Positions 2 to 2,920 are shown, counted from the stretch's first letter. The stretch is 64,000 nt of DNA from Desulfovibrionaceae bacterium (GCA_031551515.1 JAVBNL010000023.1:23048-87047), one strand, 5' to 3'. Made by a program: numbers and translations. The notes: generated by a model from the letters alone, not told the origin.

Positions 2-2920
2 CTCTCGCCCATTCACAGCCCCATGGCCTGCGTGGCCGCGTACATGCGGAAATACGAAGGCATAACCGGAAAAATCGCGGCTCTTTCGCCCTGCATCGCC
101 AAAGCCGTCGAATTCGAGGCCATAGGCAGCATCCAATACAACGTGACCTTCACCAGGCTGCGTGAATTCATAAACGCGCACGAAATCATTTTGCCTGAAG
201 AAGAAAGCGGTTTTGACCATCATGAAAGCGGCCCGGGGTGCCTGTTTCCCACCCCCGGCGGCCTGAAAGAGAATATCGAGTTCTTCACCGGAAGAACGCT
301 GCGGGTGGACAAGGCCGAAGGCCGCGATGTGTATAAAAAGCTCGACGCGTACGCGGCCGCGCCCGTGGAACTTTTGCCGCAGATATTCGACGTTCTCAAT
401 TGCCAGGAAGGCTGCAACATCGGCCCCGGCTGCCCGCACGACAAAGACTTCTTTCAATTGCAAACGGCTATGTGCGCCGCGCGCCAGGCGGTGGCCGGGC
501 GGCGCGACGCTTCGTACTACGACGCCGCGTATGCGAGATATGACGAGTTGTTCGACCTCGGCGACTTCATCCGCGAATACACGCCCGTGCGCGCAGGCAG
601 CGCAGAGGTCACCGAGACGGACATCCAGAACGCTTTCGCCCTGCTTGAAAAAGATACGTATGCCAAGCAGAATTTCAATTGCGGCGCCTGCGGCTCGAAC
701 ACCTGCCGCGACATGGCCCGCAAAATCGCGCTGAAGGTGAATATCCCCATAAACTGCATCGTCAAAGAGCAGAACAAGAACAAAGAGCTTTACCAGCGCA
801 ACGCGAAATACATCGACCTGATAAACGCGATCGGGCAGAACCTGCTCTCCGCCGGCGACGACAAGCACACAGACGCCATACTCAACTCCACGCGGACCCT
901 CACGTCGTTAATCCGCATCTGCAGCGCCGCCATATGGAAATTTCAGCGCGACGGCGAAGGCCGCCCCTGCGTGGAGCAGGCCTTTCTTTGGCCTCGCCGG
1001 GAAGAAGGCGAAACAGAAAGGGTGTATTGGTCGCAGGCGCCGGAGTGTTTTACGGCTCTGTCGCAAGGGCAAACCATCATCCGGCATGAGCGGGGCATGA
1101 GCGACGCGGAAAAGACGCTCTTTCCGGAGGAAAGTTTCGCCTCCATGCTTTTGGCGCCGGTGTTGATAAAAGAGCAGTTCTGGGGGGTCATAGCCGTTTC
1201 GAGCGATCAGGAACGGCCGTTTTCCGACGAAGAGGTTTCCGTCGTGATTTCCAGCGGGCTGCTGGTCGTTTCAAGCCTGATTGAAAAAGAGATGACCGAA
1301 AACCTCATCGCCGCCCGCGAAGCGGCCCTCTCGGGCATGCACGCCAAAAGCGATTTCCTTTCGCGCATGAGCCACGAGATGCGCACGCCCATGAACGCCA
1401 TCATCGGCATGACCAAAATAGCCGACGCCACAAACGACATCGACAAGCTGAAATACTGCCTGGCCACGGTCGGCACCTCGGCGGAGCACTTGCTGGGCCT
1501 GATAAACAACATTCTGGACCTGTCGAAGATAGAGTCCGGCAAGTTCGACCTGAACAACGCGCCCTTCTCGCTTGAGCGCATGCTCATAAAAGTCTGCAAC
1601 ATCGTCATCGACAAGGTTGATCAAAAAAAGCAGAAGCTGCACGTCGCCATAGACGAACGCATACCCGACCAGGCCGCCGGCGACGAATTGCGGCTTTCGC
1701 AGGTTATCGCCAACCTGCTGTCCAACGCGGTGAAATTCACCCCCGAAGAAGGACGCATCACGATTCGCGTCGACCAGGTCCACGCCGGAAACAAGCGCCA
1801 GGTTCTGCGTTTTTCCGTCATTGACAGCGGCATCGGCATGACGGCCGATCAGCTCGGCCGCCTTTTCAACCCCTTTGAGCAGGCGGATGACAGCATCACG
1901 AGCCGCTTCGGCGGCACGGGCCTGGGCCTTGCCATTTCCAAAAGCATCGTTGAAAAAATGAACGGCAAAATCTGGGCGGAATCGCAGCCGGACCACGGTT
2001 CGCGCTTCATCTTCGAGGTGGAGCTGCAGCCGCTCGCGCCTTCTTCCGCTTTGCCCGCAGCCGCGGCGTCGCGCCCCGGAATCCGGATTCTTTTCGCGGA
2101 CCGGGACGAAGAGAGCCGCGAGCATTTCTTCGGCCTGGCCGGGAAGCTGGGCATCCGCGCCGACACGGCAAACGGCGCTGCCGCGGCGGCAAGTCTGGCG
2201 GAAGAAGCGAAGCGCCGCGGCGCCCCGTATGATGCGCTTTTCGCGGCAGCGAACGTTCAAGACCCCGGCGACGCGGGCAATTTGGCCCGCTGCGCCGCCG
2301 CCCTGCCCGACGGCGGCATCGTTCTGGTGGCGTCTTTTCTGGAATGGCAAAAAACCGAAAGCGCGGCCCGGTCTCTGGGCATCGGCAAATTCATCTCAAG
2401 GCCCCTCTTTCCCTCGGCCGTGGCCGAAATCCTGGCCGTCCTCAGCGGCGCGCCTTATGGGGCGGCGGGCGAAGCGGCGGACGGCCGCGCCGCCGGGCGC
2501 GAAAAGGACAACGACTTTTCCGGCACAACGCTGCTGCTTGTGGAAGACGTCGAGCTGAACAGAGAAATCTTCATCGCGCTGCTCGAACATACCAACGTCG
2601 CCATCGACACGGCTGAAAACGGCCGCGTGGCCGTGCGCAAATTCGAACAGAACCCCGACAAGTACGACCTGATCGTCATGGATCTGCAAATGCCCGAAAT
2701 GGACGGGTATGCGGCGACAAAAGCCATACGCGCCTCTGTTGCCGAAAGGGCCCGCTCGGTCCCGATCATCGCCATGACGGCTAACGCTTTTAAAGAAGAT
2801 ATCGACAAGTGCCTTGAAAACGGCATGAACGGCCACCTGGCGAAGCCCATCGACCTGGACGCGGTCATGGCGGCCATCACCCGCCACGCGAACCCCCGCG
2901 GAACAAGGCCGCCGTGCTGA
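2..2920 (+). CDS. Hybrid sensor histidine kinase/response regulator with N-terminal sensory [FeFe]-hydrogenase-like (HydS/group C-like) domain; 5' end runs off the window
   Basis: The reading frame is open from the window start. H-cluster-domain-like motifs are present (SPMACVAAY, LSPCIAKAVEFE, FPTPGGLKE, NCQEGCNIGPGC). A Cx2Cx4Cx16C motif lies at nt 680-757. A GAF-like region follows, then the HisKA H-box SHEMRTPMNAIIG, the HATPase G-box GGTGLGLAISK, and a C-terminal receiver domain (LLLVEDVELNREI...DLIVMDLQMPEMDG...AMTANAFKED). Confidence 0.8.
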   Translation, partial: LSPIHSPMACVAAYMRKYEGITGKIAALSPCIAKAVEFEAIGSIQYNVTFTRLREFINAHEIILPEEESGFDHHESGPGCLFPTPGGLKENIEFFTGRTLRVDKAEGRDVYKKLDAYAAAPVELLPQIFDVLNCQEGCNIGPGCPHDKDFFQLQTAMCAARQAVAGRRDASYYDAAYARYDELFDLGDFIREYTPVRAGSAEVTETDIQNAFALLEKDTYAKQNFNCGACGSNTCRDMARKIALKVNIPINCIVKEQNKNKELYQRNAKYIDLINAIGQNLLSAGDDKHTDAILNSTRTLTSLIRICSAAIWKFQRDGEGRPCVEQAFLWPRREEGETERVYWSQAPECFTALSQGQTIIRHERGMSDAEKTLFPEESFASMLLAPVLIKEQFWGVIAVSSDQERPFSDEEVSVVISSGLLVVSSLIEKEMTENLIAAREAALSGMHAKSDFLSRMSHEMRTPMNAIIGMTKIADATNDIDKLKYCLATVGTSAEHLLGLINNILDLSKIESGKFDLNNAPFSLERMLIKVCNIVIDKVDQKKQKLHVAIDERIPDQAAGDELRLSQVIANLLSNAVKFTPEEGRITIRVDQVHAGNKRQVLRFSVIDSGIGMTADQLGRLFNPFEQADDSITSRFGGTGLGLAISKSIVEKMNGKIWAESQPDHGSRFIFEVELQPLAPSSALPAAAASRPGIRILFADRDEESREHFFGLAGKLGIRADTANGAAAAASLAEEAKRRGAPYDALFAAANVQDPGDAGNLARCAAALPDGGIVLVASFLEWQKTESAARSLGIGKFISRPLFPSAVAEILAVLSGAPYGAAGEAADGRAAGREKDNDFSGTTLLLVEDVELNREIFIALLEHTNVAIDTAENGRVAVRKFEQNPDKYDLIVMDLQMPEMDGYAATKAIRASVAERARSVPIIAMTANAFKEDIDKCLENGMNGHLAKPIDLDAVMAAITRHANPRGTRPPC

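Follow-up and report, generated by a model that had tools for sequence, protein, structure and literature searches.

The stretch of DNA analysed here (hereafter the window) comprises 64,000 nt from a Desulfovibrionaceae bacterium (GCA_031551515.1, JAVBNL010000023.1:23048-87047; G000:C67:23048-87047 in our own numbering) and begins within a sensor kinase gene, the 3′ part of which lies at positions 2-2920 on the + strand. As judged from its sequence, the protein encoded is a cytoplasmic hybrid sensor histidine kinase that takes its input through a HydS-like, non-catalytic [FeFe]-hydrogenase scaffold. The protein is a further member of a large, catalogued class of presumed H2 sensors and is otherwise an ordinary member of its family. 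The sole result obtained here that could change the understanding of this kind of protein is the distribution of the hydrogenase maturases. That is, the genomes of its closest relatives appear unable to build the hydrogenase cofactor, and H2 may not be the signal that is sensed. We consider the chances to be evenly balanced that the kinase/GGDEF 'TQPC' clade to which the protein belongs functions independently of the di-iron subcluster and re-uses the scaffold, in the manner of Nar1, for Fe-S-based sensing of redox state, electron input or oxidants.

The open reading frame (ORF) at 2-2920 is open at the start of the window and corresponds to residues 160-1131, plus the stop codon, of a protein of 1131 aa. 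The missing 159 N-terminal residues were retrieved from upstream DNA of the same contig, which placed the gene start 476 nt 5′ of the window, at G000:C67:22572 (equivalent to L002:9525, the full ORF being L002:9525-12920). The extent of the gene follows from the ORF calls, the upstream DNA and the starts of homologues, with which the N-terminus of the protein (MRK..I..C-x2-C) agrees. The domain order is 2x[4Fe-4S] ferredoxin, HydS-like H-domain, Cx2Cx4Cx16C motif, GAF, HisKA/HATPase, pseudo-receiver and receiver. The initial annotation, made from the window alone, had described a hydrogenase-like domain fused to a hybrid histidine kinase and had surmised that ferredoxin clusters lay 5′ of the window; the fusion is real (one ORF, by Pfam), and a 2x[4Fe-4S] Fer4 domain was indeed found by Pfam in the full protein at residues 12-61, upstream of the window on the + strand. 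In the part of the protein encoded within the window, Pfam detected Fe_hyd_lg_C at profile positions 95-245 of 245 with 31 bits (cut-off 22.1), and FeS PF04060, GAF, HisKA, HATPase_c and Response_reg likewise scored above their Pfam cut-offs. With the full protein, the Fe_hyd_lg_C match (PF02906) covers residues 82-301 and profile positions 4-245, at 79.3 bits against the same cut-off of 22.1. The C-terminal two thirds of the H-domain (residues 160-301) are encoded at 2-427 (+), as delimited by PF02906, HMMER alignment to CbA5H, CpI and HDCR HydA2, and Foldseek; the first third, including the true L1 motif, lies upstream of the window. The full protein was modelled with AlphaFold2 from an alignment of 120 sequences; the model had a mean predicted local distance difference test score (pLDDT) of 87.9, mostly above 90 over residues 1-300, and its N-terminal part was matched by Foldseek to CbA5H, HydABC HydA, DdHydAB and CpI (about 435 columns, root-mean-square deviation 3.8-5 Å, E down to 4e-18).

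The motifs of the H-cluster were assigned from HMMER alignments to solved [FeFe]-hydrogenases and from a MAFFT alignment with the HydA and HydS proteins of the same genome, and the two approaches concur. The motif positions reported by the initial annotation were all verified, although not all of its assignments stood. SPMAC (S165-C169; 17-31, +), which it had taken for the first H-cluster motif, is placed by both alignments on the equivalent of the SPQQ helix, 'KSPQQ(M/I)F', and is not L1. The true L1 is 'IVTQPC142ASIVSYCE', located 27 residues N-terminal of SPMAC and outside the window (nt -67 to -26), and aligns to 'ILTSCCPGW' (TSCCPxW). The remaining motifs on the + strand are L2 at 83-118 (LSPCIAKAVEFE), which contributes the cubane ligand C190 and in which C190, K193 and E196 are invariant in the 120 sequences; FPTPGGLKE at 245-271, which aligns to 'IFGTSGGVLE' of the group A HydA of the same genome; and L3 at 398-433 (NCQEGCNIGPGC), with the third cubane ligand, C293, and C297, both invariant or nearly so. 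In true hydrogenases, the Cys at the position of C297 forms the bridge to the di-iron site. We take K193 and E196 to be the counterparts of K358 and E361 of CpI. Therefore, all four Cys ligands of the [4Fe-4S]H cubane are present (C142, C190, C293 and C297, corresponding to CpI C300, C355, C499 and C503), each being invariant or found in 118-120 of 120 homologues, and the loss of these ligands that the initial annotation had named as grounds for rejecting its reading did not occur. The Cx2Cx4Cx16C motif (C386, C389, C394 and C411; CGACGSNTCRDMARKIALKVNIPINC, 680-757, +) falls in the PF04060 match at residues 383-411 with exact spacing and is the predicted site of a C-terminal accessory [4Fe-4S] cluster, its Cys being kept in 118 of 120 homologues. 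Further conserved Cys are C121 and C149, in the kinase/GGDEF clade, and C169, which is a signature of the entire QPC clade: it is Cys in 105 of 120 family members and in all 28 correctly extracted Oscillospirales homologues, and is not found in the HydS or HydA proteins of the query's genome.

The residues associated with proton transfer present a different picture from the cluster ligands. At the position of the proton-relay Cys, C299, the protein has Pro141. The initial annotation, which had read 'AC instead of CC' in SPMAC, was right that the relay Cys is gone, but named the wrong replacement because the motif had been misplaced. Its view that the extra four-Cys motif and the missing C299 are traits of sensory enzymes agrees with the description of the M2e and M2f sensory enzymes (PMC8163306), in which C299 is replaced 'mostly' by hydrophobic alanine (PMC10407848). 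No acidic residue remains at the corresponding positions of the group A proton pathway (E279/S319/E282/R286), 'GADICIWAH' being aligned to 'ADLTIMEE'. In the alignment, Ser188 and Leu291 stand in place of M353 and M497, respectively, and L247 of 'PGGLKE' occupies the position of the TamHydS proton-relay residue E252. That Glu lies in an 'SGGEAFG' context in TamHydS and begins the alternative group D proton pathway (PMC10407848). The E289 position of the same E252-E289 pathway is Asp289.

The output half has the features of a hybrid histidine kinase, namely an H-box His, an ATPase domain and a receiver with its acceptor Asp. A GAF domain (residues 456-574; 890-1246, +; PF01590, E 1.4e-7, 32.5 bits against a cut-off of 22.4) is modelled as an alpha/beta fold with high pLDDT, and no PAS domain was detected by Pfam in the sensor kinase, the GAF domain following the four-Cys motif instead. 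It is joined on its N-terminal side by a modelled helix (409-441) that exits the four-Cys motif, and on its C-terminal side by a modelled 68-residue helix (568-635) that leads into the DHp domain. HisKA/DHp (residues 607-672) and HATPase_c (residues 719-835) are encoded at 1343-2029 (+; Pfam, 61.7 and 111.9 bits), with the H-box SH617EMRTP at nt 1370-1390, and this kinase core was matched by Foldseek to ShkA and HK853. A pseudo-receiver, REC1 (about residues 852-973; 2078-2443, +), was recognised from BLASTP comparison with REC1 of the downstream kinase described below and from a (beta-alpha)5 pattern in the model; Asn910 occupies the position of the phospho-acceptor Asp, which the downstream paralogue retains in the BLASTP alignment. 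The second receiver, REC2 (residues 1004-1118; 2534-2878, +; PF00072, 84.9 bits), has D1053 (nt 2681-2683) and K1107, both nearly invariant in the 120-sequence alignment. The best Foldseek match of the whole transmitter half was ShkA (PDB 6qrj; E 3.6e-25, 27% identity), in which we take the order to be DHp-CA-REC1(pseudo)-REC2. Many family members carry a GGDEF output; the transmitter of the query, with its degenerate REC1, best matches ShkA. Hpt domains were found by Pfam neither in the sensor kinase nor elsewhere on contig C67; those of the genome are encoded on contigs C3, C51, C17, C41, C14 and C15.

Searching with the N-terminal 440 residues (the module) retrieved at least 1294 homologous proteins. 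The best 120 of these share 53-66% identity over the module, and all retain the 8 + 4 + 4 cluster Cys. Named sources of the family include Clostridiales and Oscillospiraceae metagenome-assembled genomes (MAGs), Leadbettera azotonutricia, Holophagaceae and a Desulfovibrionaceae MAG, and the same module is fused to different outputs, i.e. hybrid kinases (with GAF or PAS), GGDEF domains and, in remoter relatives, chemoreceptor hairpins. The motifs 'xQPC', 'SPxxC', 'SPCIAK', 'PGGLKE' and 'NCxxGCN', together with the C-terminal four-Cys motif, are common to all 28 correctly extracted Oscillospirales homologues (a wrong ORF had been extracted for L119, from genome G172, which was excluded from the comparisons). 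A search for related loci that relied mostly on kinase peptides retrieved 80 generic hybrid-kinase loci, none of which contained the hydrogenase-like module. A maximum-likelihood tree placed the query within the kinase/GGDEF clade with 100/99 support, apart from the chemoreceptor-fused clades; the first 425 residues of P0099 and P0108, which have N-terminal extensions, were misaligned in this tree and the placements of these two proteins were disregarded. The closest homologue (P0003, 65% identity) is encoded in a Desulfovibrionaceae MAG (GCA_031551765.1). Searches of 30 relatives, of which 4 belong to the query's genus, 14 to its family and 12 to its order, gave no match to the module at E ≤ 1e-30. 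This patchy distribution suggests that the gene was acquired by lateral transfer; the GC content of the gene (0.590, genome 0.597) gives no compositional sign of a recent event.

Partial copies of the module were also observed. A truncated paralogue in the query's genome (G000:C11:20040-20774; L009/L108) shows 56% identity over residues 73-177, including 'ITQPCPAIV' and 'SPMLC', then skips directly to a 'FNCGACGSDTC' motif and ends, and thereby resembles a gene remnant. The contig of the closest homologue (L105:5725-6335) bears, approximately 1.7 kb upstream of the full gene, a partial copy that covers roughly the first 200 residues of the module in two pieces, at 43-49% identity. Duplication and decay of the module may be recurrent.

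The distribution of maturases was examined in 401 Oscillospirales genomes, sampled evenly from the order of the Oscillospiraceae carrier G032. A homologue of the module (E ≤ 1e-40) was encoded in 25 of them. HydG scored above its cut-off in 174 genomes of the sample, i.e. in 11 of the 25 carriers (44%) and in 163 of the 376 non-carriers (43%). HydF was present in 12 carriers: eleven had both HydF and HydG, one had HydF only, and 13 had neither. The status of the two maturases was thus concordant in 24 of 25 carriers, which makes random assembly gaps an unlikely cause of the absences. All five genomes of the sample that encode a kinase-fused protein (G032, G149, G065, G083 and G073) contained neither maturase, and neither HydG nor HydF was found in the MAG of the closest homologue. 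Four of these five kinase-fused proteins and the closest homologue group with the query in the kinase/GGDEF clade; that is, each of the five other genomes sampled from this clade lacked both HydG and HydF. The cluster motifs were alike in maturase-positive and maturase-negative genomes. This lack of association, together with the occurrence of the kinase clade in genomes devoid of HydG and HydF, weakens the case for H2 as the signal. The initial annotation had proposed an H2- or redox-sensing kinase: a sensory-type, non-catalytic module is borne out, but the H2 half of the proposal has lost ground for want of maturase co-occurrence.

The query's own genome was also searched for the hydEFG maturases, as the initial annotation had envisaged, with a mixed outcome. 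HydE (256 bits, cut-off 254.6) and HydF (483 bits) are both encoded on contig C54, but HydG was not found in the assembly, which is 94.65% complete, the best match being ThiH. Among four genomes of the same genus two have HydG, and in one of these (G002) the gene order is hydA-hydG-hydE-hydF. Contig C54 starts with the last 50 nt of an otherwise unassembled hydA-like gene (LAKKRLQTKYDKRPKR followed by a stop). Between this gene tail and hydE-hydF lie a hairpin and non-coding DNA of about 340 nt, so that the syntenic position does not hold hydG. The hairpin region (G000:C54:1-400) is repeat-like and was considered together with G000:C19:1-120 (the C19/C54 junction). Synteny first suggested a simple assembly gap as the cause of the missing HydG; however, on C54 the hydA-like tail is followed directly by hydE. 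The hydG gene may still lie in the unassembled portion of about 5% of the genome.

Seven PF02906 matches were found in this genome: three group A-like HydA proteins, one group B-like protein, HydS, the query protein and the truncated paralogue. The query gave the weakest full-length score of the genome scan (83 bits, against 164-333). The classical HydS (G000:C39:13844-15625; L007) has a ferredoxin domain, 'CTACP', 'IGPCAAKKSE', an exact Cx2Cx4Cx16C motif and a C-terminus that appears PAS-like by eye. With this protein and the query in one genome, the organism has both sensory types. Two of the group A-like HydA proteins (G000:C9:1389-3803 and G000:C83:49107-51002) read 'TSCSPGW' at L1, with Ser for the second Cys, and the former additionally has 'FMCCPGGC' in L3 and a long extension N-terminal of the hydrogenase part.

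Several points weigh against a function independent of the di-iron site. The kinase/GGDEF-clade sample is small (five genomes besides that of the query), and for the 401-genome sample a completeness of at least 90% was requested, not confirmed per genome. The query's genome encodes HydE and HydF and five other H-domain proteins. The residues of the di-iron pocket (AP motif, SP, K193, E196, F241 and C297) are invariant or nearly so in the family, as would be expected of a pocket still in use; Nar1-type proteins also retain several of the pocket residues. Absence of HydEFG is no proof of an absent H-cluster: maturases are missing from most archaeal genomes that encode [FeFe]-hydrogenases, organisms with active [FeFe]-hydrogenases but no maturases are reported in archaea and some eukaryotes, and a different maturation route has been put forward (PMC11216029). 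In addition, characterisation of sensory-type enzymes is confined to TmHydS and TamHydS, and each of these binds [2Fe], reacts with H2 and has Ala, not Pro, at C299 (PMC8163306, PMC10407848).

The main rival reading is that the protein is a true H2 sensor of the classical group C type. A di-iron site would be installed on C297 by HydEFG or an alternative pathway, H2 splitting would be slow for lack of a proton relay, and the reduced state of the H-cluster or F-clusters that results would be read out through the C-terminal cluster region and GAF to the kinase. The homology to HydS with the same accessory cluster layout, the conserved pocket, the HydE, HydF and several hydrogenases to regulate in the query's genome, the hydA-hydG-hydE-hydF cluster in a genome of the same genus, the reaction of characterised HydS enzymes with H2 (PMC8163306) and the existence of carriers with maturases (12 of 25) are all consistent with it. 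Nevertheless, carriers are not enriched for HydG, neither HydG nor HydF was found in 13 of 25 carriers or in any of the five other kinase/GGDEF-clade genomes, HydG was missing from the query's assembly and from the syntenic position, no hydrogenase genes lie near the query or beside two homologues, and the C-terminal cluster of TamHydS is not reduced by H2 (PMC13104023), so that we regard an H2 sensor as unlikely, if still a serious contender. Carriage by QPC-clade proteins of an H-cluster made through a HydEFG-independent bacterial route appears improbable. Still further down the scale is a working catalytic hydrogenase merely fused to a kinase, for instance coupling H2 turnover to signalling: the hydrogenase fold and the four cubane ligands would suit it, yet the group A proton pathway is gone (Pro at C299, no acidic residue at E279 or E282), its group D substitute E252 is Leu, M353 and M497 are Ser and Leu, and the full-length PF02906 score is the lowest among the H-domain proteins of the genome, which together leave it hardly any probability. 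Returning to a module that dispenses with the di-iron site, its extension from the kinase/GGDEF clade to the whole QPC clade, i.e. kinase, GGDEF and chemoreceptor fusions acting as bacterial Nar1 counterparts with an Fe-S wire, is a tentative proposal that we place a shade below even. The query itself, whose genome encodes HydE and HydF, might also receive a di-iron site and then respond to H2.

The initial annotation had further proposed that the sensor kinase forms a phosphorelay with the hybrid kinase encoded immediately downstream (2988-6371, +; PAS, GAF, PAS, HisKA, HATPase and two receivers, by Pfam). The two genes are on the same strand and separated by a gap of 67 nt. On the + strand this gap contains nothing resembling a terminator, and a GGAG motif lies 8 nt before the ATG at 2988 (the first possible start being a TTG at 2973); the genes may be co-transcribed. 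Over 542 residues, the downstream kinase is 45% identical to the transmitter half of the query (BLASTP) and is its paralogue. Their proximity, the similarity of the transmitter halves and a metagenome contig on which two family members occur in tandem would fit a dedicated pair. Against this, both proteins consist of a kinase with receivers, no Hpt domain was found by Pfam in the downstream kinase, any more than in the query or on the contig, and the neighbourhoods of the two closest homologues examined (P0003 and P0015) contain unrelated genes, with neither a second kinase nor hydrogenase genes. That the transmitters are so alike suggests that both kinases feed one downstream pathway in parallel and do not form a serial relay, and we attach little probability to a dedicated phosphorelay pair.

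If the protein works without the di-iron site, the redox or ligation state of its Fe-S chain would alter the conformation at the C-terminal cluster and the adjoining helix. Judging from the architecture, this signal could be passed through the GAF domain and the coiled coil and would switch autophosphorylation of H617. The phosphoryl group would then move from H617 to D1053, to an unlinked Hpt protein and to a response regulator encoded elsewhere in the genome.

Should the di-iron site prove dispensable across the QPC clade, the label 'H2 sensor' would be wrong for a large and widespread group. The maturase pattern suggests that the annotation of such fusions as H2 sensors is not self-evident, which bears on inferences of hydrogen sensing drawn from gut and sediment metagenomes. 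The signalling partners of sensory [FeFe]-hydrogenases are still to be identified, according to a 2026 study of TamHydS (PMC13104023), and the initial annotation rightly considered the signalling output little studied: no paper testing kinase output turned up in the literature searched. The fusion of sensor and kinase in one polypeptide offers a direct read-out of sensory-hydrogenase signalling.

Upstream of the gene, ORFs resemble an AraC-type regulator, a CobW-like GTPase, genes for ATP-binding cassette transport and a TonB-type receptor (translations read by eye), and no hydrogenase genes were found near the query gene. Beyond the downstream kinase, the window contains at 6536-6991 (+) an ORF of 151 aa with a signal-peptide-like start followed by charged RDD/KRDD repeats ('RDDRRDDKR...'). 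The tandem family members mentioned above lie on an Oscillospiraceae-like metagenome contig of the European Nucleotide Archive (L110:8001-16965); they are a PAS-type kinase of 1687 aa and a GAF-type kinase of 1273 aa, directly downstream of a gene for a MalT/LuxR-type (TPR_MalT + GerE) regulator.

Among catalogued kinds, HydDB group C1, 'Histidine kinase-linked (putative)' (PMC5037454), comes closest; its listing confirms that a histidine kinase-linked subgroup had been defined, as the initial annotation stated, and the query was compared with it by table description. Both combine N-terminal 2x[4Fe-4S] with an H-domain of the sensory type, in which the proton-relay Cys is missing; both also have the extra four-Cys cluster and are linked to a histidine kinase. 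However, the query's kinase is fused, whereas Vallitalea encodes its C1 enzyme and kinase in separate genes (PMC6163223). The query also differs in having TQPC at L1, where the HydS of its own genome has the TxAC(P) form, as well as GAF in place of PAS, no hydrogenase neighbourhood and a clade that does not track maturases. TmHydS (group C, M2f) and the HydS encoded on contig C39 share with the query a ferredoxin domain, a short H-domain, Cx2Cx4Cx16C and a signalling domain; HydS and the query have both lost C299 and have the SPM and PGG motifs in common. Nonetheless, identity to the C39 protein is only 26% (tblastn to L007), and that protein reads CTACP in L1, with Ala at C299, has Gly in place of M353, ends in a PAS-like output and is without the clade Cys C121, C149 and C169. 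The PAS domain that follows the four-Cys motif in group C (M2f) is replaced in the query by GAF, although other family members have PAS.

Like the query, TamHydS (group D, M2e) has Ser at M353, Leu at M497, a C-terminal Cx2Cx4Cx16C and no PAS domain (PMC8163306, PMC10407848). Membership of group D, suggested by M353S and M497L, was considered and rejected, since the relay Glu E252 is replaced by Leu247 and E289 by Asp289; moreover, TamHydS is stand-alone with Ala at C299, whereas the query is fused to GAF and a kinase. The sensors fused to methyl-accepting chemotaxis proteins (HydDB C2, 'Chemotactic (putative)') share the 'xQPC' L1, SPxxC, SPCIAK, PGGLKE, NCxxGCN and Cx2Cx4Cx16C with the query and are likewise without maturase association, but their output is a chemoreceptor hairpin and their clades are separate from the kinase/GGDEF clade. 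The likeness to Nar1/NARFL (IOP1) is by analogy only, in the mode of working. These proteins have the hydrogenase fold, keep the cubane ligands and function without HydEFG or a di-iron site; they are eukaryotic cytosolic Fe-S assembly factors and not signalling proteins. Finally, the transmitter half resembles that of Caulobacter ShkA, which is controlled by binding of cyclic di-GMP at REC1, whereas the input modules of the two kinases are unrelated.

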